Shown: piece by piece, positions 3,245 to 61,390 of the stretch
Layout: each line of letters opens with the position of its first letter
Numbering within the stretch: position 1 is the stretch's first letter
Source of the DNA: a virus
Strand: one strand, 5' to 3'
Virus record (IMG/VR): IMGVR_UViG_3300045988_109366
Span: 32,001-96,000 of that record
Length of the DNA stretch: 64,000 bases
Translations under genes and position numbers: made by a program
The notes under the pieces: model-generated
Seen by the model: only the letters and a program-made list of their open reading frames with translations
The model's database searches: none
Told to the model about the DNA's origin: nothing

Positions 3245-3252
3245 TATATTTG
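3245..3252 (+). promoter_or_regulatory. Bacteroidota-type -7 promoter box TATATTTG
   Basis: Matches TAnnTTTG. Lies 19 nt upstream of the in-frame ATG at 3271. Confidence 0.4.
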
Positions 3253-3270
3253 AGCAAAAATAATTATGAT

Positions 3271-4905
3271 ATGGAAGATTTTCAAGGTAAATACAATGGT
3301 AAGCAGATAGAGCAGCTTTTGGATAAGGCTAATGATATTGATCTTTCCAAATACGCTCTTAAGACGGATAACGCTCCTACCGCCACAAAATTACAGGCAG
3401 CTAGGACTATAGTGCTGTCCGGGGCTGTTAGCGGTAGTGTCTCATCGGACTTTGGAAGTAATGTTACTATCTCCACGACATTGTCGAACTTCGACGCCTC
3501 TAAGATCGCGTCCGGAACCATCAGCATAGATAGGTTACCTAAGGCGGCTTTGGAGAGATTGATCGTGGTAGCTGATGATACGGCAAGGTTTAAACTTACT
3601 ACAGCCACGGCTCAGGTCGGGGACACGGTTAAGGTAACGGCCACGAATAAGATGTATCTGGTCAAGGATGATAGTAAGTTGAATACCGAGGATGGTTACG
3701 AGCCTTATACGGCAAGTTCGGCGTCATCTGTGCCATGGTCTGGAGTGACCGGCAAACCTAGCACCTTCGCTCCACCTACGGCGGCGGCCTCCACCTTAGG
3801 TGGCGTAAAGGTAGGATACACGACTTCTGGCAAGAACTATAAGTTACAGGTTGACGCTTCTGGTAACGCTTTTGTTAATGTTCCATGGACAGATAATAAT
3901 ACGACCTATAATCAGGCCACGGCTGACACTTTAGGATTGGTTAAGATCGGTTATACCTCTAGTGGGAAGAACTATGCCGTATCCTTGGATGCTAATGGTA
4001 AGATGTATGTGAATGTCCCTTGGACTGACAATAACACGACTTACACCCAAGCCACGAGCGATAAATTGGGTCTTGTTAAGATCGGGTATTCGGCTAACGG
4101 AAAGAATTACCCGGTAGCTCTTGACGGAAATGGTAAGATGTATGTGAACGTTCCGTGGACGGACACCAACACCACATATTCCAATATGGGGGCGGCGACC
4201 TCCTCGGCTGCGGGAAAGGCCGGCTTGGTCCCCGCACCTGCCGCCGGAGCGCAAGCCAAGTATCTTCGTGGTGATGGAACATGGCAAACCCCTCCTAATA
4301 CCACATATAGCAACATGGGTGGAGCGACGTCCTCAGCCGCAGGATCGGCGGGATTGGTACCCGCTCCGGCTGCCGGCAAGCAAACCTCTTTCCTTCGTGG
4401 TGATGGCACATGGGTCGTGCCTACCAATACCACGTACGGGTTGGCCTCCACTTCCGCCAACGGCTTATTGAGACAGCTTAATGGTAGCACCTCTAATTTT
4501 ATGCGTGGAGATGGTACATGGGCTACCCCTCCTAACACGACATATGCCGTGGCCAACGAATCCACTAATGGATTGATGGCGGCCGCCGATAAGAAGACCA
4601 TGAACAGGCTTATAGGGGTTAATACGGTCACGACATTAGCCAGCTTACCTATCTCTAAAAGAAGCATCACGGCCACGCTATCAGCGGCTACCACCCTATC
4701 CGTGGCGTCAGGTATGCAGATAGGAGAGGAGCTGATGATCAGGTGTGTCCCGTCTGCGGTCTTTACTCAAGCCATACCAAATTCAGGAGCTTATGTAAGC
4801 ATGAGTGGTACTTCTATAACCACTACGGCTAACAAGCCTTTCGAGATAAATATCTGGTGTTACGCTTCAGGCAAGTATAGCATCGCTGTTAAAGAACAAG
4901 ATTAA
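3271..4905 (+). CDS. tail fibre protein with internal tandem repeats
   Basis: Three ~45-aa repeats (GLVKIGY..GKNY....NGKMYVNVPWTDNNTTY). Then three repeats of SSAAG.AGLVPAPAAG...LRGDGTW..P.NTTY, typical of phage fibre repeats. Start moved from TTG 3250 to ATG 3271. Confidence 0.75.
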   Translation: MEDFQGKYNGKQIEQLLDKANDIDLSKYALKTDNAPTATKLQAARTIVLSGAVSGSVSSDFGSNVTISTTLSNFDASKIASGTISIDRLPKAALERLIVVADDTARFKLTTATAQVGDTVKVTATNKMYLVKDDSKLNTEDGYEPYTASSASSVPWSGVTGKPSTFAPPTAAASTLGGVKVGYTTSGKNYKLQVDASGNAFVNVPWTDNNTTYNQATADTLGLVKIGYTSSGKNYAVSLDANGKMYVNVPWTDNNTTYTQATSDKLGLVKIGYSANGKNYPVALDGNGKMYVNVPWTDTNTTYSNMGAATSSAAGKAGLVPAPAAGAQAKYLRGDGTWQTPPNTTYSNMGGATSSAAGSAGLVPAPAAGKQTSFLRGDGTWVVPTNTTYGLASTSANGLLRQLNGSTSNFMRGDGTWATPPNTTYAVANESTNGLMAAADKKTMNRLIGVNTVTTLASLPISKRSITATLSAATTLSVASGMQIGEELMIRCVPSAVFTQAIPNSGAYVSMSGTSITTTANKPFEINIWCYASGKYSIAVKEQD

Positions 4906-20585: not shown

Positions 20586-21329
20586 TTGTAAATTTCATAG
20601 AAAATCATAGAAATAATTAAGATATTCTACTCCATTTTAGACGCTTCAACACAACTGGCAACCCGGCTGCTCTGCGTCCGTATAGCCGCATCAACTCCTA
20701 CGGCTTGTATGTTTATCGCGGCGTTGAGATCCCTGTCGATCTCCATGCCGCAATCTTTGCAGACAAATGTTCGATCCGATAATTTCAGATCTTTATTCTT
20801 CCAGCCACATCTTGAACAGGTTTTCGAGGATGGGTAAAAACGATCTATAACAATCAGTTCTTTACTATACCACCTACACTTGTATTCAAGTTGGTTACGG
20901 AACATCGAGAAAGAAGCATCATATACAGAACCGGCAAGTTTGTGATTCTGTAGCATACCGGAAGCATTTAGATTCTCAATACAGATAACATCGTAATTAT
21001 TTACCAGCATCGTGGTCAAATTATGCATGTACCATGAACGCTTGTTGGCTATATCACGATGAAGTCTTGATACTTTTAGCCTGCATTTGTTTCTTCGATT
21101 ACTTCCTAATTTCTTTCTTGATAAATGCCGTTGCATCCTTTTTAACTTCGCTTGGTTCTCACAAAGAAAATGGGGATTCTCAACAGCAATCCCATCAGAT
21201 AATGTTTTTGCAAGAAGTTCTTCTTGTGTTTTGTTCGGATACATACGATATTTATATGAACATCTTATTAGACTCATCATCAATTCATTTTAATATATTA
21301 AATATGCAAATAATTCTATGATTTTACAA
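20586..21329 (-). mobile_element. decayed tnpB element bounded by its own inverted repeats
   Basis: TTGTAAA..TCATAGAA at 20586-20612 is the inverse of TTCTATGATTTTACAA at 21314-21329. The pair encloses the truncated tnpB. Confidence 0.45.
20627..21283 (-). CDS. tnpB: TnpB derivative with in-frame internal deletion (REC/WED and RuvC-I missing)
   Basis: N-terminal SYKYRMYPNKTQEELL joins directly to ENPHFL...VICIENLN (RuvC-II), CSRCG..CKDCG (zinc finger) and DRDLNAAINI (RuvC-III). There is no GIDxG RuvC-I motif. 218 aa versus about 370-400 aa for intact TnpB. Confidence 0.7.
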   Translation of the reverse strand: MMMSLIRCSYKYRMYPNKTQEELLAKTLSDGIAVENPHFLCENQAKLKRMQRHLSRKKLGSNRRNKCRLKVSRLHRDIANKRSWYMHNLTTMLVNNYDVICIENLNASGMLQNHKLAGSVYDASFSMFRNQLEYKCRWYSKELIVIDRFYPSSKTCSRCGWKNKDLKLSDRTFVCKDCGMEIDRDLNAAINIQAVGVDAAIRTQSSRVASCVEASKME

Positions 21330-23148: not shown

Positions 23149-23442
23149 TTATTTGTTAAAAGTGTAATATAAATATAAATACATAAATTGAATAGGGCTA
23201 TTCACCATGCCCTTATCAGTAGGATCATCGTATTTGTCAAGCCAAAGACGAAGCGCCTCCCAATCGATATCCTTACGGTCACATACCATGCAGGCTAGGT
23301 TAGCCCCGAACGGCTCCCCGCCGCCGCTCAGCGAGCTATTAAACCTTTTGGCTAGTCTTTCCTTGAATCCCTTATCATACCAAATACCGGAGGTAGCGGC
23401 ATAGCAATAATAAGCGTTGTACTTCAGGTGATTATATACCAA
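23149..23442 (-). CDS. hypothetical protein; tracked TTG start lies inside the tnpB element end
   Basis: 97-codon ORF. The first 5 codons are encoded by the element terminus GGTATATAATCACC. The true start is uncertain. Confidence 0.4.
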   Translation of the reverse strand: MVYNHLKYNAYYCYAATSGIWYDKGFKERLAKRFNSSLSGGGEPFGANLACMVCDRKDIDWEALRLWLDKYDDPTDKGMVNSPIQFMYLYLYYTFNK

Positions 23443-23530
23443 TTTAAACCAGTATAATTTGACGCTTCACAGCCCCGGCCATCGCCGGTGACTCCACATC
23501 CCCTACCCGGTCCACCACCGGTGACGTATT
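23427..23530 (-). ncRNA. candidate omega-RNA (reRNA) scaffold of element B
   Basis: GC-rich hairpin-forming stretch (CCGG-TGGTGGA-CCGG, CCGG-CGATGG-CCGG) between the tnpB stop and the element end. The position matches where TnpB guide RNAs are encoded. Its 5' limit probably lies inside the ORF. Confidence 0.4.
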
Positions 23531-24646
23531 TTATTGGGTTAGAAGATTCTGTTTTTCTAACCCAAATTTCTTTATGTTCCTAGCGGCAAGAAGATCCCTA
23601 TCATTTACGGCTCCACAAGAAGGGCAAGTCCAGATACGATCGGATAATTTAAGATCCCGATGTATGTACCCACATCCGCACATCTTGGAGCTAGGTTCGA
23701 ATCTACCAACCCGAATCAAATTCACGCCCTTCCAATCCGACTTATAGCTTAATATTCTAAAGAACTCGCTCCATGAGCATGAAGCTATGCTATTAGCCAG
23801 CTTATGGTTCTTCATCATCCCCTCCACGTTAAGATCCTCAATAACCACGGTTTGGTTCTCGCCTAGGATATTGTTGACCACATGGTGCAGGAAGTTATGT
23901 CTTTGATTTGATATACGCTCGTATGCCTTAGCTACAGCTAATCTGGCTCTTTCTCTTCTTCGGCTTCCTTTTTGTTTGCGAGTTAATCTACGTTGTAAGC
24001 ATCTTAACCGTGCGGAAGACCTTTCAAGATATTTCGGGTTCTCGAAAATCGAACCGTTCGATAAGGTTGCGAATGTCTTTATCCCGACATCGATACCTAC
24101 AGCGGTATCCGGATTTATAGGAGACTTGTCCGGCAATTTGAGGCCGTTATCTACAAGGATACTGATATAGTACTTATTTGTAGGTGATTTAGATACAGTG
24201 ACAGTCCCTATTTTACCTTTAAACACTTGGTTTGAGTAGAATCTTATCCATCCTAATTTCGGTAACTTAATCCTGTTGTTATCGAAATCAATATGAACAT
24301 TGAGGATATTCTTGAACGATCTCCTTGATCCTCGCTTTGACTTGAATTTTGGGAAGCCTTTCTTTTCCCTAAAAAATCTGGTGAAAGCCTGATCAAGATT
24401 CCTTATTGACTGTTGCAGACATTCGTTAGACACCTCATTAAGCCAAGTATATTCCTCTTGTTTCTTCAAATCAGTCAGTTTCTTGCATAGATCAACAGCC
24501 GTAAGTGATTTTTTATCATCTTGATACGCTTCGATTTTTGTCTGCAAAGCCCAGTTATAGATAAATCGTGTTGATCCGAAAGTCCTCTCTATTAGAGAGA
24601 TCTGTTCGGATGTCGGATTTAGTCTATATTTATAAGCTTTTAGCAT
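23531..24646 (-). CDS. tnpB: TnpB RNA-guided endonuclease (IS200/IS605-type OrfB), apparently intact
   Basis: N-terminal MLKAYKYRLNPT. RuvC-I VGIDVGIKT, RuvC-II VVIEDLNVEGM, zinc finger CGCG..CPSCG, RuvC-III NDRDLLAARNI. Start set at M43 of the tracked ORF. Confidence 0.9.
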   Translation of the reverse strand: MLKAYKYRLNPTSEQISLIERTFGSTRFIYNWALQTKIEAYQDDKKSLTAVDLCKKLTDLKKQEEYTWLNEVSNECLQQSIRNLDQAFTRFFREKKGFPKFKSKRGSRRSFKNILNVHIDFDNNRIKLPKLGWIRFYSNQVFKGKIGTVTVSKSPTNKYYISILVDNGLKLPDKSPINPDTAVGIDVGIKTFATLSNGSIFENPKYLERSSARLRCLQRRLTRKQKGSRRRERARLAVAKAYERISNQRHNFLHHVVNNILGENQTVVIEDLNVEGMMKNHKLANSIASCSWSEFFRILSYKSDWKGVNLIRVGRFEPSSKMCGCGYIHRDLKLSDRIWTCPSCGAVNDRDLLAARNIKKFGLEKQNLLTQ

Positions 24647-24680
24647 ACTACTGTCTTTTGATACAAAGATGTGATATAAA

Positions 24681-24746
24681 AAGTAATTATATACGATTTT
24701 ACTTATGTCATACAACATAATAGTGTAAAGATGTATATAATTACTT
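24681..24746. repeat. 14-bp perfect inverted repeat (hairpin) at the left end of element B
   Basis: AAGTAATTATATAC at 24681-24694 and GTATATAATTACTT at 24733-24746, with a 38-nt spacer. Confidence 0.8.
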
Positions 24747-24768
24747 AATGTTATTTCGGATATGGATG

Positions 24769-25044
24769 TCATTTTTTGTCATATATCAACATAACGTTGA
24801 TAAGATCAGCCTTTCTAACCATCCCCTCAAGTTTATTAAAGCCATCCATATTATCCCCACTGACGATAATAGTAGGATATACTTCTATGCCGTACTTGGA
24901 TATCTCCTCCTCCGTGGCTTTGTTCTCTGGGATCTGGTTTAACGTAACCTCACCCTCATACTCCTGTAATGTGTTGGCGATAATATACCGCATGTAGTCG
25001 CTGCACTCAGCGTCTTTCTTCGTGAAAAAATCAATTCTTACCAT
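24769..25044 (-). CDS. thioredoxin-fold-like small protein (weak call)
   Basis: 91 aa with a beta-alpha-beta start and a ..YPTIIV.. segment. No CxxC motif. Confidence 0.3.
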   Translation of the reverse strand: MVRIDFFTKKDAECSDYMRYIIANTLQEYEGEVTLNQIPENKATEEEISKYGIEVYPTIIVSGDNMDGFNKLEGMVRKADLINVMLIYDKK

Positions 25045-25110: not shown

Positions 25111-25734
25111 CTACTCTTTCTCCTGACTCTTCCATTTCACTAGTCCTTTATTATGTTTATCGTAATACAACATTGCTATAGCGTTCCACACCACCTGCGC
25201 AAGATGCATACATCCTGTATCCGAATCAAATCTCTCCCCTTTCGTATAAGCAACTAAGTGCCGCATGGTCGCACCTAAATACCGATTGAATCCATCAGGT
25301 ATATCTTGCCATGAGTTATCGGCGTACTTCTTGGCTCCTTCCGTATATACCCTCACGATGTCCTCTATCTCAGCCAAAGGAAGGAGATCCCACCGGAGTT
25401 TACCGTCGGCCCGGTCGTCCTTCCCCGTCCCGTCCTTGCCTGGCAGCCCACCTCCTTTATTGGCGTCCTCATTCCCATCTGGCTGGATGATCTCCTCCGA
25501 TAAGGCCTTATTGCTATTCATTACTATCTCCTCCGCCTCATCCTTGTCTATAAGCCGTTCCCTTATAGCTATATGTAGCGGCAATACCTCATCCTCTCCA
25601 GCCCACATGGAACCATATCCCTTTGGATATAACGTTGATAATTTCATCGTACCTGTATTATCCGCCGTTCTTTCAACCTCCCAGATCTCACCCTCGCAAA
25701 AGACCTTGTCAAATTTATTAAATTCGTATTTCAT
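25111..25734 (-). CDS. MazG-like dNTP pyrophosphohydrolase (dATP/dGTP diphosphohydrolase-type domain)
   Basis: LRWDLLPLAEIEDIVRVYTEGAKKYADNSWQ ... MRHLVAY ... HLAQVVWNAIAML matches the phage all-alpha NTP-PPase pattern. Confidence 0.6.
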   Translation of the reverse strand: MKYEFNKFDKVFCEGEIWEVERTADNTGTMKLSTLYPKGYGSMWAGEDEVLPLHIAIRERLIDKDEAEEIVMNSNKALSEEIIQPDGNEDANKGGGLPGKDGTGKDDRADGKLRWDLLPLAEIEDIVRVYTEGAKKYADNSWQDIPDGFNRYLGATMRHLVAYTKGERFDSDTGCMHLAQVVWNAIAMLYYDKHNKGLVKWKSQEKE

Positions 25735-31547: not shown

Positions 31548-32246
31548 CTAAATCGACATTTTCAATCTTCTACCTAATTCTTTTTTTATATCCGATATCC
31601 TTTCGATATCCATCTTAACATCGCCTGTGATAGCGTATTCCTTATCCATTCTCTTTGGGGGATCCGGAAGCCGGCTTATGGCGAACAACCATGCCAGCTC
31701 CTTGTTCTTGTTCTCCCTAAGATACAAGTCAGACGTCATGCCATACATTTTTATGATCGTATCGAATAACGTTGATTCCGATAAACTCATATGCACGCTA
31801 TACACATTTGATGGTTTCCAGATCAAGTTATCCAATCTCATCGTATACTCACGTTTAAGATCTATGTGGGATATTACGGCCCTTACTATAGGTTCTTCCT
31901 TGAAGTTGGTGTTAGCCACAAACCAGATAAGCCTTTTTTCCACCTCCTTGATAGCTCCTGTATCCTTACCCGTATCGTTATATACCCCAACGATACGGTC
32001 CCGGATCCCCTCGACCTCCGGTGTCAGACCGGGTGTCTCTATCAGCATCAGCAGCGATCCTCCCCTTGGCGTTATCTTCCACTTCCCATTCTTCTGAAGC
32101 TCAATATAACCAGATGCTTTATAACTATCTATTTTCTCCTTTGGAATGGTGTTAGCCATCTCTTCTTTTTGCCGGATCATCAAAAGATATCCAACATCAG
32201 ACATCGTTAATCCTGATGTCATCATCTGTTCAAAATTTATATACAT
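31548..32246 (-). CDS. hypothetical protein
   Basis: 232-codon ORF in the replication module. Confidence 0.6.
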   Translation of the reverse strand: MYINFEQMMTSGLTMSDVGYLLMIRQKEEMANTIPKEKIDSYKASGYIELQKNGKWKITPRGGSLLMLIETPGLTPEVEGIRDRIVGVYNDTGKDTGAIKEVEKRLIWFVANTNFKEEPIVRAVISHIDLKREYTMRLDNLIWKPSNVYSVHMSLSESTLFDTIIKMYGMTSDLYLRENKNKELAWLFAISRLPDPPKRMDKEYAITGDVKMDIERISDIKKELGRRLKMSI

Positions 32247-40907: not shown

Positions 40908-41069
40908 GACATTTTGTTTTTGAATTAAATTAAATAAACATTATTAATAGTTAATACCATCCTTTCTTCTATCATTCATATTTATTCTTTTAAGTAATTA
41001 TATACAACCTTACACTACAAACATACTGAATTATTTTTATATATAAATAATAATCCATATATTCGTGCC

Positions 41070-42293
41070 ATGAGGCTAGTTGAACAACATATAATCAAGC
41101 AAAGCTCAATATATTACAATGAGATTCAAGATCTGTTGCATAAGTGCAAAAACTTATACAACAAAGGATTGTATGTTGTTAGACAACATTACTTTCAATA
41201 TAAGAATGATAATACCGTTAAGTATAAATACCTCAACTACTACCCTCTTGAAAAGAAGTTAAGAACAGAAGATGACGTTGACTATCGTGCTTTACCGTCA
41301 CCGGTAGCCCAACAGGTATTGATAATGGTCGACCAGAATTTCAAGTCCTTCTTCAATCTTCTTAATAAGAAAGGTAGAGGTGAATATTCTGAGAAAGTAA
41401 GAATACCTAAGTATCTTGATAAAGATGGGATGTTTATGGCTGTTTTCCCAACAACAGCCTTTTCTCAAAAATGGATAAAGCAAGGTATTATTAAGTTGCC
41501 AAAGCAATTCTCTTTCACCACGAGAACTAACAAGCAAAATATCCAACAACTCAGGTTCGTCCCTAAGAATGGATATATTATACTTGAAATCGTATATAAC
41601 AAGAAAGAGAAAGATCTTATATATGATAACGGTAATTACCTTGGTATTGATCTTGGACTTAACAATTTAGCATCTTGTGTATCAAATACCGGTTCCTGCT
41701 TTATCATCAACGGTAAGCCTCTAAAATCTATCAACCAGTATTATAATAAAAGATTAGCATATTTAAAATCTAAATTAAAAGACAATAAACAAGTCTCAAA
41801 GCAAATAAGGTCGTTAACCAACAAAAGGAATAACAAGATCAAGGATTATCTGCATAAAGCCAGTAGGGTATTGATTAATCATGTAGTCTCCAATGGCATT
41901 AATACGATCATAATCGGTCATAATAGATGTTGGAAACAAGAGATCAATATCGGAAAGCGGAATAATCAGAACTTTGTTTCTATTCCTTTTAATATGTTTA
42001 TCTCAATGATATCATATAAGGCTACACTTGAGGGAATCAATGTTAAGATCGTTGAGGAATCCTATACCTCAAAATGTAGTTTCTTGGATAACGAGCAGAT
42101 TCGTAAGCATGAGGAATATGTCGGAAGACGTATCAAACGAGGATTATTCAAGACATCTTCCGGCAATATTATTAACGCCGATATCAACGCTGCATTTAAC
42201 ATCATTAGAAAATCGGCAAAAGAAGCCTTCGATGTAAGTATCTTGCCAGAAGGTAGAGGGTTTTGGTGGAACCCGATACGGATTTCCGTATAG
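41070..42293 (+). CDS. tnpB: TnpB-family RNA-guided endonuclease, zinc-finger-less clade
   Basis: VEQHIIK...LYNKGLYVVRQ N-terminus. RuvC-I YLGIDLGLNN, IIIGHNRCWKQE, EESYTSKCSFLD, RuvC-III NADINAAFNIIRK. Confidence 0.85.
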   Translation: MRLVEQHIIKQSSIYYNEIQDLLHKCKNLYNKGLYVVRQHYFQYKNDNTVKYKYLNYYPLEKKLRTEDDVDYRALPSPVAQQVLIMVDQNFKSFFNLLNKKGRGEYSEKVRIPKYLDKDGMFMAVFPTTAFSQKWIKQGIIKLPKQFSFTTRTNKQNIQQLRFVPKNGYIILEIVYNKKEKDLIYDNGNYLGIDLGLNNLASCVSNTGSCFIINGKPLKSINQYYNKRLAYLKSKLKDNKQVSKQIRSLTNKRNNKIKDYLHKASRVLINHVVSNGINTIIIGHNRCWKQEINIGKRNNQNFVSIPFNMFISMISYKATLEGINVKIVEESYTSKCSFLDNEQIRKHEEYVGRRIKRGLFKTSSGNIINADINAAFNIIRKSAKEAFDVSILPEGRGFWWNPIRISV

Positions 42294-42339
42294 ATATATA
42301 TCATTTTACGATTTTAGTGTAAAATGGTATATAATCACC
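42252..42339 (+). ncRNA. candidate omega-RNA 3' scaffold of element A
   Basis: Overlaps the tnpB 3' end. Hairpins at 42258-42274 and 42276-42291 are conserved with compensatory changes in the copy at 45948-46037. Confidence 0.5.
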
Positions 42340-42753
42340 TACCCCAACATCTGCTCCATCTTCTTTAATCCAATTATCCGTATCGCAATGCCAACAATAT
42401 CCTGTTTTGGAATCCTCTTTATGAGAATGAGACCCACAAGTAGCGCACCAATAATTATCATCCGTATCGTATGCGTAGCTTTTATCCTCATGCATCTTAG
42501 CTACTCTGACCATTCTATCTTCTAGCAGTTCTTTTAGATAAGGGCATTCATAAGGTCTATCCTCCTCCCGTAATATCCAAAGCTCGATATCCGTCATCTC
42601 CCCCATCCTGTCCGTGCACATCCGCTCGGCGGCATGACGTACGCTATCTTCCGGCATCCCCGGGACTATCTCCCGGATCACTGCCTCCATCCTCTCTTGG
42701 TATTCGGTGTCTACCTTAGCCACCAAGCCTTCTAATTTATCTATTAAGCTCAT
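42301..42753 (-). CDS. hypothetical Cys-rich protein; last 12 codons encoded by the element A terminus
   Basis: 150-codon ORF. ...GADVGV|GDYIPFYTKIVK*, where the part after the bar is the reverse complement of the element end. Confidence 0.6.
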   Translation of the reverse strand: MSLIDKLEGLVAKVDTEYQERMEAVIREIVPGMPEDSVRHAAERMCTDRMGEMTDIELWILREEDRPYECPYLKELLEDRMVRVAKMHEDKSYAYDTDDNYWCATCGSHSHKEDSKTGYCWHCDTDNWIKEDGADVGVGDYIPFYTKIVK

Positions 42754-42760
42754 AATTTTT

Positions 42761-42775
42761 ATTGTATATAATTAC
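42761..42775 (-). promoter_or_regulatory. solo copy of the LE-type motif GTAATTATATACAAT
   Basis: 15-mer identical to 61214-61228. Lies 7 nt upstream of ATG 42753. Either a promoter or a solo terminus. Confidence 0.35.
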
Positions 42776-42960
42776 TATTTGATATTTATAATCTTTTGAT
42801 CTCTCATCTCATTCTTATCCTTGAACATCATTATCCTATTAACAATACCTTCCGATTCCATGTACGTCGAGAATCCATGTATCCTTAGATATTGAATAGC
42901 TGATAATGATTTCTCCAATATCTCCCTATACTCCATATCTGTTTTAACTGCTTTCTCCAT
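42775..42960 (-). CDS. hypothetical protein
   Basis: 61-codon ORF. Confidence 0.45.
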   Translation of the reverse strand: MEKAVKTDMEYREILEKSLSAIQYLRIHGFSTYMESEGIVNRIMMFKDKNEMRDQKIINIK

Positions 42961-45462: not shown

Positions 45463-45702
45463 ATCATTTTAGTTTAATCATTATACTTGTGGAAAATAAA
45501 ATCCGCACATTCTCCGGGGAGTGTTCCTGCGTCATTACAACGGTAGAATCCTTGTGTTTCCAAATCTACATCTACCGGATAACCTTCTGCTGCTTCCAAG
45601 AAGCGTTTGATTTCCTCACATTCTTCATCCGTTAATCCAGTGTAATCATCATTGATTAACGGGCAAGCCCAATAAATCGGGAGCCTGTATCTTATTATCT
45701 CT

Positions 45703-46037
45703 GGCGATTATATACTATTTTACACCAGATATGTTATAAAACATACAGATGTTATTTAATTTCATATTCTTCTTTTCTAACTTTGTTTCACCCAATCGAA
45801 TCACATAGTCCCTTGTTTCGGACAAGACGATTGGGTAAAAGAGGTCTTTGATATAAGGTTTTACCCTAAAAAAATATTCGTTGGGTAAGTAAAATCAAAA
45901 ACGTTTTGTTTAGTAAAAGAATCCGGCGATCTCACTTTTGAGCAACCGGTAGAGGGTATTGGTGATACCCAGTACGGATTTTCGTACAAATGCATATCAT
46001 TTCTCATTTTTTTGGTGTAAAATGGTATATAATCACC
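45703..46037 (+). mobile_element. non-autonomous (MITE-like) derivative of the element A family
   Basis: 24-bp TIRs with 22/24 identity. 8-bp direct repeat TTATCTCT at 45695-45702 and 46038-46045. No ORF inside. The left ~45 nt and right ~130 nt are homologous to element A. Confidence 0.8.
45948..46037 (+). ncRNA. orphan omega-RNA-like module (no adjacent nuclease gene)
   Basis: About 80% identical to 42252-42339. Hairpins at 45954-45970 and 45972-45987 keep their pairing through double substitutions. Confidence 0.45.
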
Positions 46038-46049
46038 TTATCTCTATAT

Positions 46050-54465: not shown

Positions 54466-54655
54466 CCCTTGCTCGAAAGGCGTTTCCCTTGCTTGGTGTT
54501 TTTCCTCGCTTGGTGTTTTTCCCCTTGTTTGGAAAGGTTTTCCCTTGCTTGGAGGTGTTTCCCTTGTTTGGTGGTGTTTTTCTTGTTTGGTGTTTTTCCT
54601 TGCTTGGAAAGGTTTTTCTTGTTTGGAGGTGTTTTTTTCCTTGTTTGGAAATGTC
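54466..54655. repeat. iteron-like tandem array, about 10 units of 16-21 bp
   Basis: Core CTTG(C/T)T(T/C)GG followed by (A/G)-rich bases and a T-run, repeated 10 times. All six frames are open only because of low complexity. Confidence 0.8.
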
Positions 54656-61213: not shown

Positions 61214-61228
61214 ATTGTATATAATTAC
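61214..61228 (-). promoter_or_regulatory. solo copy of the LE-type motif GTAATTATATACAAT upstream of tRNA-Arg
   Basis: Identical 15-mer to 42761-42775. Lies 20 nt upstream of the tRNA 5' end. Confidence 0.35.
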
Positions 61229-61243
61229 CAAACAATATTTTAG

Positions 61244-61309
61244 CGAATCCGGCTGGAATCGAACCAGCATCTCCAATATTATGGTAATCATCCAATGATC
61301 CTCGGATCC
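61244..61309 (-). other. tRNA-like remnant (canonical T-arm and acceptor, no foldable D/anticodon arms)
   Basis: GCTGG-TTCGATT-CCAGC T-arm. Acceptor GGATCCG/CGGATTC with one G-U pair. The 5' half does not form a cloverleaf in any register tried. Confidence 0.35.
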
Positions 61310-61390
61310 ATATGTCCCGATCCTCCCGGACAAGGACATCAAACAAAATCTAAACTCTAAATCTAATGACAAATTATATTAATCCAACTG

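Follow-up and report, generated by a model that had tools for sequence, protein, structure and literature searches.

What brings two unrelated tnpB genes between the same ends in one viral genome? The question arises in a 64,000-nt stretch of the IMG/VR virus record IMGVR_UViG_3300045988_109366 (positions 32,001 to 96,000), which we refer to in its full length as the window. An earlier note, made from the letters alone, had seen that the left end (LE) and right end (RE) of one tnpB element recur around a second, dissimilar tnpB, and had offered two explanations: a common trans-acting mobilization or processing factor, or ends that double as phage regulatory signals. Here, the two elements are called A and B, and a shorter third one with the same ends is called C. 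At a probability of about 0.8, we read all three as non-autonomous elements of the IS1595 lineage that carry TnpB/omega-RNA cargo, are mobilized in trans, and have an RNA built on the right repeat of the transposon. The features on which the argument turns are as follows.

23427 to 24745, minus strand: element B, a probable non-autonomous IS1595-type element with terminal inverted repeats (TIRs) that match the family consensus, carrying tnpB-B and a putative omega-RNA
23531 to 24646, minus strand: tnpB-B coding sequence, 371 aa, ATG at 24646, with RuvC D-E-D motifs and zinc finger intact
24720 to 24745, minus strand: left TIR of B, AGTAATTATATACATCTTTACACTAT, with first base A where the consensus has G
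23427 to 23452, minus strand: right TIR of B, CTGGTTTAAATTGGTATATAATCACC
40993 to 42339, plus strand: element A, same TIR family, with tnpB-A (41070 to 42293, 407 aa) and its own omega-RNA-like 3' region
45703 to 46037, plus strand: element C, a 335-bp miniature inverted-repeat transposable element (MITE) without an open reading frame (ORF), same TIRs, with about 130 nt of A-type omega-RNA region kept

The ends of A and B are exactly as alike as the earlier note had it, with 22 of 24 positions identical at LE and 21 of 24 at RE. The LE and RE of one element are, moreover, inverted repeats of each other (17 to 19 of 24 identical), and the six ends of A, B, and C, read outward, all fit RGTGTAAAnnnGTATATAATYACC. 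The TIR family has a consensus of about 26 bp, 5'-GGTGATTATATACAAYTTTACAC, at both ends. By this consensus the left repeat of B starts at 24745 (AGTAATT, where the consensus is GGTAATT) and 24746 belongs to the flank; the first base is A rather than G in both window A and window B. Between the stop codon and the end of the element lie 104 nt in B and 46 nt in A. The window has 10 copies of the core TATATAATYAC where 0.35 would be expected, a number reached in none of 100 shuffles. Two of the copies stand alone.

42761 to 42788, plus strand: solo TIR remnant, TTGTATATAATTAC..., at a place where sister phages have an autonomous element
61217 to 61228, plus strand: second solo TIR-like copy, TCTATAAATTGTATATAATTACC, between tRNA genes

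We fetched 158 IMG/VR loci, 78 with relatives of TnpB-B and 80 with relatives of TnpB-A, mostly 80- to 160-kb human-gut phage contigs. Nearly all of the ~140 related copies, also those whose TnpB-B is only 61 to 69% identical, have the repeats at both ends, so the similarity of the termini does not vanish in a larger set of copies, as the earlier note had allowed that it might. Chance similarity in AT-rich DNA was ruled out by the shuffles together with this conservation. With the repeat taken from its GG start to its CC end, perfect 8-bp target-site duplications (TSDs) flank the TIRs in more than 100 related phage copies. The TSDs vary in sequence and mark many independent insertions of both TnpB types at dozens of sites (for B-type copies, for example, TTAGACTA, CTTGTATA, TTCTTATA, TTACAATA, and TAAGTTTG; for A-type copies TACATCTT, TAGTTTTG, TTGATTTA, TATATCTA, TAATATAT, TAAGCTAA, and others). 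For 29 of the 61 TSD-bearing insertions, another phage contig has the empty site, in which the 8-mer is present once, and these 29 cases span TnpB-A elements, TnpB-B elements, transposase-bearing elements, and window element C. The latter has a perfect TSD, TTATCTCT, at 45695 to 45702 and 46038 to 46045, and its site is empty in L080, L310, and L387; it is a clean, recent insertion. Larger and adjoining units were seen as well. In L008 (2354 to 4220), a 1,867-bp unit made of a repeat-bounded piece of ~550 bp plus a B element shares one 8-bp TSD, TAAACTAA, and its empty site is present in other phages, and in L029 a 183-bp MITE (2711 to 2893) lies directly beside the left end of a B element.

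The translation of tnpB-B holds all the motifs attributed to it before: AYKYR at residue 4, GIDVG at 184, IEDLN at 269, a CxC...CxxC zinc finger (CGC...CPSC), and DRDLLAARNI at 349. Pfam (HTH_OrfB_IS605, OrfB_IS605, and Cas12f1-like_TNB) and NCBIfam matches span the full length of the protein, and the RuvC D-E-D residues are present. The guided_TnpB model of NCBIfam matched with 347.9 bits (cutoff, 100) and IS200_TnpB with 416.9 bits, below its cutoff of 425. As the earlier note had said, this protein and the 407-aa TnpB-A can hardly be aligned, with 24% identity across 147 aa only (E = 0.001). Most relatives of TnpB-B keep an intact ORF of 371 or 400 to 406 aa. A TAnnTTTG box, the -7 promoter consensus of Bacteroidota, lies ~20 nt upstream of the ATG in most B copies and reads CATCTTTG in the window copy. 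The window also holds a third, decayed tnpB (20627 to 21283, minus strand) with partial HTH, OrfB_IS605, and TNB domains. It is 44% identical to residues 194 to 364 of TnpB-B, has an internal deletion of approximately residues 30 to 190, and at its 3' end keeps a GAAGCGTCTAA box with no recognizable repeat; in the sister contig L014, a B-type element is apparently inserted into its counterpart.

One could take B for an IS200/IS605-type element of the IS1341-like, TnpB-only kind, whose subterminal LE and RE hairpins are recognized in trans by a Y1 TnpA, a reading toward which the earlier note leaned. The IS200_TnpB score, relatives 45 to 49% identical that lie beside tnpA, and the strong LE hairpin of B speak for this possibility. 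However, the ends of B are inverted repeats of each other, and related copies have perfect 8-bp TSDs with matching empty sites, whereas IS200/IS605 and IS607 elements have neither inverted repeats nor TSDs (PMC13565253, PMC3627910). TIRs with TSDs are signatures of DDE transposons and are incompatible with both groups. In addition, the window encodes no Y1 TnpA, IS1595 transposase genes lie between the same repeats (see below), and the LE hairpin is not mirrored at RE and does not occur in A, although A has the same termini. The IS200/IS605 reading of B is therefore already contradicted, and we give it hardly any weight. IS607 membership was rejected on the same TIRs and TSDs; the ORFs adjoining A and B have no recombinase domain, a result limited to these ORFs, as no window-wide search for serine recombinases was made.

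The LE hairpin itself is real.

24681 to 24746, minus strand: LE palindrome of B, consisting of the left TIR, a 7-bp mini-palindrome, and an inverted TIR-like copy (24681 to 24704), then TTTTTAT

The two arms, 24681 to 24694 and 24733 to 24746, are perfectly complementary over 14 bp, as had been reported, and this stem is the base of a longer RNA fold of 14 + 5 + 7 bp with a free energy of -24.5 kcal/mol (z = -4.1). The palindrome of ~66 nt is followed by the T-run. It had been likened to the subterminal hairpins of IS200/IS605, but it is in fact the left repeat pairing with an inverted repeat-like copy, conserved in the B family, degenerate in its 402-aa subfamily, and without a match at RE. 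As it is absent from A, it is not the feature common to both elements. Possible roles are those of an additional site for transposase binding or of an insulator or terminator; it might also be what is left of a nested mini-MITE.

To which transposase the repeats belong became evident from cellular genomes. Scanning bacterial and archaeal genomes for the pattern GGTRATTATATACNNNTTTACAC gave at least 120 loci, among the matches listed mostly in Bacteroidota (Alistipes, Rikenella, Tidjanibacter, Chryseobacterium, Flavobacterium, and Parabacteroides), with others in Melainabacteria and elsewhere. These loci hold many MITEs of 130 to 270 bp and elements of 2.2 to 4.8 kb, with the same repeats and 8-bp TSDs. 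The larger elements encode a protein of 300 to 330 aa along with passenger genes, and this protein matches Pfam DDE_Tnp_IS1595 (E = 1e-29 to 1e-49) and NCBIfam transpos_IS1595 (159 to 215 bits; cutoff, 75). IS1595 is an ISfinder family and the bacterial counterpart of eukaryotic Merlin. The family is described as having TIRs that start with 5'-GG, 8-bp TSDs, and a transposase with an N-terminal zinc finger (PMC8101967); the autonomous copies found here have a transposase with an N-terminal Zn-ribbon-like CxxC region.

Such elements are also found in phages. The same TIRs and 8-bp TSDs flank the transposase-bearing elements of bacterial loci L160, L170, L199, L223, L263, and L269 and of phage loci L295, L322, and L336, and the phage IS1595 elements carry lipoprotein-like passengers. 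A search with the transposase alignment gave 406 relatives on viral contigs, several of which also carry TnpB-A or TnpB-B elements. The left repeat of the transposase element in L336 is identical at 26 of 26 positions to the A-type left repeat of L083 and L084. In L290 (136 to 4324) and L353 (248 to 4994), an autonomous element of 4.2 to 4.7 kb with transposase and lipoprotein-like passenger genes sits between the homologues of window positions 42760 and 42789, exactly where the window has its first solo repeat, ~420 bp from element A. By tblastn, TnpB-A and TnpB-B were not found inside the transposase-bearing phage elements; only distant homologues lie nearby in L289, L316, and L344.

The repeats and TSDs shared with IS1595 transposase elements therefore place A, B, and C among non-autonomous IS1595-type elements, and from the near-identical TIRs and the co-occurrence on the same contigs we infer that an IS1595-family transposase moves them in trans. 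The two tnpB genes would then have the same ends because both are passengers on one IS1595-type family. The common trans-acting factor suspected in the earlier note is thus most probably an IS1595-family DDE transposase. L253 (1503 to 2760), a Muribaculaceae metagenome-assembled genome, holds a bacterial copy: repeats of the same family flank a TnpB with 44% identity to TnpB-B, and the locus has in common with B a GAAGCGTCAA box and a terminal hairpin that contains the repeat. The association of the TnpB-B clade with IS1595-type repeats therefore predates the phage lineage and extends beyond it.

The second proposal of the earlier note was that the termini are phage regulatory signals, that is, promoter/terminator cassettes like the T4-type PeSL elements, which came to flank tnpB by recombination. 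Motif copies do occur between genes, one 10 nt upstream of the ATG of ORF 42301 to 42753 and one upstream of tRNA-Arg, and the LE palindrome with its T-run looks like a terminator. However, all but 3 or 4 of the 10 motif copies in the window are element ends, and the sister phages show one of the exceptions to be left over from an autonomous IS1595 element. In Bacteroidota, Melainabacteria, and other genomes, the same 26-bp repeats flank MITEs and transposase genes; exact 8-bp TSDs with empty sites are a signature of transposition and not of recombination between regulatory cassettes; and a simple promoter/terminator scan of 23300 to 24900 returned nothing at the termini, its one strong terminator-like match being the antisense reading of a hairpin at the ORF end. 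We thus consider a regulatory origin of the ends highly improbable, with nearly all window copies being ends or remnants of IS1595-type elements. Beside the solo copy at 61217 to 61228 lies a tRNA-like sequence (61243 to 61312, minus strand) with a T-arm and acceptor end that neither ARAGORN nor the Rfam tRNA model called; it may be a tRNA pseudogene or fragment.

Unlike element C, window copies A and B have no TSD. The flanks are TAACATTA and TGAAGTAC for B and TTCTTTTA and TACCCCAA for A, and sister phages without A read ...TTCTTTGGTAATTA·TACCCTAAC at its site. For B, comparison with sister phages shows what is missing.

23149 to 23426, minus strand: remnant of a phage gene of ~380 aa, its C-terminal ~90 codons, from comparison with sister phages

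In L001, L120, and L410, the homology to the window breaks exactly at 23426/23427, the right end of B, and these contigs have an intact ~380-aa gene between a thioredoxin-like ORF and the segment 23149 to 23426. The right end of B adjoins codon ~290 of this gene, and ~870 bp of its 5' part are missing in the window. The 24 nt between the stop codon of the thioredoxin-like ORF and the left repeat of B (24747 to 24770) matched nothing in any fetched locus. This fits an adjacent deletion or arrival by recombination, not a fresh simple insertion, and both window copies, A and B, are rearranged. At element A, the right repeat supplies the last 13 codons and the stop of ORF 42301 to 42753 (minus strand, 150 aa). 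The counterpart in sister phages without A ends earlier (...DGADVRV and stop); the insertion therefore re-tailed a phage protein.

The earlier note had placed an omega-RNA scaffold between the stop codon of tnpB-B and RE, in a GC-rich stretch, and had called it very different from that of element A. The stretch (23443 to 23530) has 55.7% GC compared with 40.8% for the whole window, and folding it with its relatives gave a covariation-supported structure that differs from that of A.

23427 to 23566, minus strand: omega-RNA-like 3' region of B, overlapping the ORF end and reaching the element end
23407 to 23426, minus strand: predicted guide/target segment of the B omega-RNA, TGAAGTACAACGCTTATTAT, placed by omega-RNA geometry

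We aligned 41 distinct B 3' sequences, including L253, and analyzed them with RNAalifold and pair counts. The B region forms four helices with 27 pairs, and 98.7% of the alignment cells are paired, compared with 30 to 46% with slid partners. Both sides have changed in 8 pairs, a number that none of 500 shuffles reached (mean, 2.8). In the last helix, the sequence just upstream of the right repeat pairs with the inner half of the right repeat; the helix is followed by 8 unpaired nt, UAAUCACC, and then the flank. Many of its pairs are G-U, which would be mismatches on the other strand and so point to an RNA of the sense strand. The A 3' region (22 sequences, including element C) has 40 pairs, 9 of them with changes on both sides, and its terminal hairpin likewise uses the right repeat as the 3' arm, followed by AAUCACC. 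Within its ~130-nt region, element C has compensatory changes relative to A (GGGTT/AACCC to GGGTA/TACCC and CCTTC/GAAGG to CCGGC/CCGG); judged by sequence, it looks like an element that carries only an omega-RNA.

We conclude that the right repeat is part of the omega-RNA scaffold in both TnpB clades. Canonical IS200/IS605 relatives of TnpB-B, 45 to 49% identical and adjoining tnpA in two of the four loci fetched, share internal boxes with B, and their 3' regions run from a hairpin through GTAGYTCAC into the flank, the same geometry as the hairpin, UAAUCACC, and flank of B. With the right repeat serving as the 3' arm of the terminal hairpin, we expect the guide to come from the DNA directly beyond the element, namely the 8-bp TSD and the adjoining flank. 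Rfam searches of the whole window at the gathering threshold, and of 23350 to 23900 with permissive settings, returned tRNAs and chance-level matches only and no omega-RNA family. In the 400- to 406-aa subfamily of TnpB-B (L024 and L043 to L064), the ORF continues past the TAA that ends the 371-aa form, spans the entire GC-rich omega-RNA region, and stops within the right repeat, 4 nt before GTATATAATCACC.

If the guide is read from the flank, the site of insertion should matter to the nuclease. We compared 21 distinct A-type sites with omega-less elements of the same family, counted in both orientations, and with 6 B-type sites. At A-type sites, position -3 is T in 19 of 21, position -1 is A in 19 of 21, and the first duplicated base is T in all 21; the omega-less elements have T at -3 in 34%, A at -1 in 61%, and T as first base in 51% (Fisher test, 1e-6 for -3 and 4e-6 for the first base). 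Of the 6 B-type sites, 5 have A at -3 and not one has T (P = 9e-5 for A-type versus B-type). The motifs over positions -3 to +1 of the empty site are thus specific for the clade and resemble a transposon-adjacent motif (TAM): T-W-A·T for A and A-W-A·T for B, where the dot stands before the first duplicated base. The bias has a direction: on the right flank, the mirror positions are unconstrained. The sister-phage alleles of the three window elements fit, with ATTA·TACCC for A, CTTA·TTATCTCT for C, and GAAAA·TGAAGTAC for B; the guide segment of B lies, in sister phages, inside the intact ~380-aa gene with GAAAA directly before it. Since the bias differs between two cargoes with the same repeats, it is hard to attribute to the transposase, and it suggests that TnpB shapes which insertions persist.

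These observations can be joined into a mechanism. An IS1595-family DDE transposase from sister phages or Bacteroidota would move A, B, and C in trans and leave 8-bp TSDs. In the transcript, the inner half of the right repeat would form the 3' arm of the terminal hairpin, the last 7 or 8 nt (AAUCACC) would stay single stranded, and the guide would be transcribed from the TSD and flank just outside the element. TnpB with this RNA could then cut element-free alleles, such as those of co-infecting sister phages, that have a TAM just 5' of the duplicated 8-mer, and repair from the occupied genome would copy the element in, so that insertions next to a TAM persist and spread. The occupied allele would be spared because the repeat end TCACC sits at the TAM position. 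A sweep of TAM-compatible insertions only would explain T-W-A·T in A and A-W-A·T in B. The OMEGA module (obligate mobile element-guided activity) would in this way turn a randomly inserting IS1595-type transposon into a homing element that reprograms itself through a guide read from its flank, with C as a guide-only locus for TnpB-A in trans. We put forward this homing role tentatively, at somewhat less than even odds.

The elements could also be IS1595-type transposons whose TnpB and RNA are inert cargo or have a non-homing role, such as a fixed guide made of the repeat and directed against host or competitor DNA, or regulation. The repeat begins only ~8 nt after the conserved GAAGCGTCAA box, and a guide derived from the repeat is thus possible by sequence; furthermore, excision by DDE cut-and-paste already leaves a break, and restorative homing is not obviously needed (PMC13565253). 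Against this, both clades pair the inner half of the repeat within a covarying terminal hairpin, which is unlike a guide, and the hairpin with 7 or 8 unpaired nt and then flank matches the canonical relatives. The clade-specific directional motifs lie exactly where one would look for the TAM of a guide read from the flank; in addition, TnpB has intact RuvC residues, and many copies keep the ORF. We regard inert or non-homing cargo as unlikely, though less so than the IS200/IS605 and regulatory explanations. The repeat itself as a fixed guide was judged unlikely because it is paired in the covarying hairpin and because of the flank motif bias.

Several points weigh against IS1595-type elements with a working OMEGA module. 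No IS1595 transposase is encoded in the 64-kb window, and two Y1 TnpA proteins used as tblastn queries gave nothing there below E = 0.9. Window copies A and B have no TSDs, and their last move may not have been simple transposition. The IS1595 chemistry may be cut-and-paste or copy. The B-type site sample is small, with 6 sites, and the site bias could reflect an expression context tied to the left end, or gene ends, because TTA, TAA, and TGA are stop codons or their complements. Guide position, TAM, and cleavage are what we infer from the patterns above.

The general kind, a TnpB associated with a DDE transposon, is already known. In the work of Altae-Tran et al. (2023, PNAS), six branches of TnpB, DDE-1 to DDE-6, are associated with DDE transposases; they have inverted terminal repeats and the 3' end of tnpB at most 250 bp from the transposon end, and include solo TnpBs whose ends are nearly identical to those of transposase-bearing elements, implying mobilization in trans (PMC10691335). 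A and B agree with this description in their inverted repeats, their distances from the end (46 and 104 nt), and ends like those of transposase-bearing elements. They differ in that a single set of repeats serves two unrelated TnpB clades and a MITE with omega-RNA only, in that the transposase mostly lies on another element, and in having bacteriophages as hosts. The DDE families named with TnpB are IS630, ISL2, and IS1031 (PMC10691335, PMC13565253); IS1595 is in the main text of neither paper, some of the DDE branches in PMC10691335 being unnamed. A literature search found no report that links TnpB with IS1595, nor a phage version.

With IS1595 elements as described, the three elements share the 8-bp TSDs, present in the window only at C and in many A- and B-type copies of sister phages, and TIRs starting with GG, except that window A and B have AG at the left end. 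They differ in lacking a transposase, in having an RNA-guided nuclease and its scaffold as passenger, with one repeat inside the RNA, and in living and moving in gut phage genomes of ~150 kb. With the IS200/IS605 elements of the IS1341-type and OMEGA kind they have in common the TnpB family, a structured RNA from the 3' end of the ORF to the right end, and a predicted flank-derived guide with protection of the occupied allele. However, the ends are TIRs with 8-bp TSDs instead of asymmetric ends without TSD that follow a fixed tetra- or pentanucleotide, the transposase is of the DDE type and not Y1 HUH, and the TAM would lie 5' of the duplicated 8-mer instead of abutting LE. Fanzor is a eukaryotic TnpB carried as passenger by TIR/TSD DNA transposons of several superfamilies, including ones in large viruses (Bao and Jurka 2013, PMC3627910); our locus likewise has a TnpB-family nuclease as passenger of a DDE-type TIR transposon, but it is prokaryotic, with canonical TnpBs, a bacteriophage, and the IS1595 family. 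The free-standing Seg and Mob homing endonucleases of T-even phages cut the gene-less allele of a co-infecting relative and are copied with flanking markers (PMC13565253). The mode of action that we propose for phage-borne TnpB resembles this intronless homing and would differ from it in a recognition that is RNA guided and reprogrammed with each insertion, and in a primary mobility provided by a transposase.

Three other features of the window were noted. Near element B, ORF 25111 to 25734 (minus strand) has the N-terminal domain of a dATP/dGTP diphosphohydrolase (PF18909, E = 1e-26), a domain family of phages that change their nucleotide pools or the bases of their DNA; modified phage DNA, if present, could affect targeting by TnpB. 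Imperfect T/G-rich direct repeats of 19 to 27 nt (...CCTTGYTTGGTGTTTTT...) cluster at 54478 to 54654 in overlapping short ORFs. At 4168 to 4545, two to three tandem coding repeats of ~129 nt (...RGDGTW.TPPNT.Y...) inside the 551-aa ORF 3250 to 4905 could form a repeated domain in a structural or receptor-binding protein.

What appears to be new is the partnership with IS1595, the phage setting, in which filled and empty sites are abundantly polymorphic, the convergence of two unrelated TnpB clades on one transposon end as the terminal hairpin of their omega-RNA, the RNA-only derivative, and the clade-specific, TAM-like filtering of insertion sites. Most of what is understood about TnpB and OMEGA comes from IS200/IS605 and IS607, in which excision leaves no scar and the lost copy is restored by TnpB. 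Of what use OMEGA is to a DDE transposon that makes TSDs is a question raised explicitly in a 2026 review (PMC13565253). The locus and its ~150 relatives are a natural test system for this question, an active and polymorphic IS1595-type family inside phage genomes that yields testable predictions on TAMs, RNA ends, and homing between co-infecting phages, and they make the human gut virome a source of compact TnpBs with defined scaffolds.

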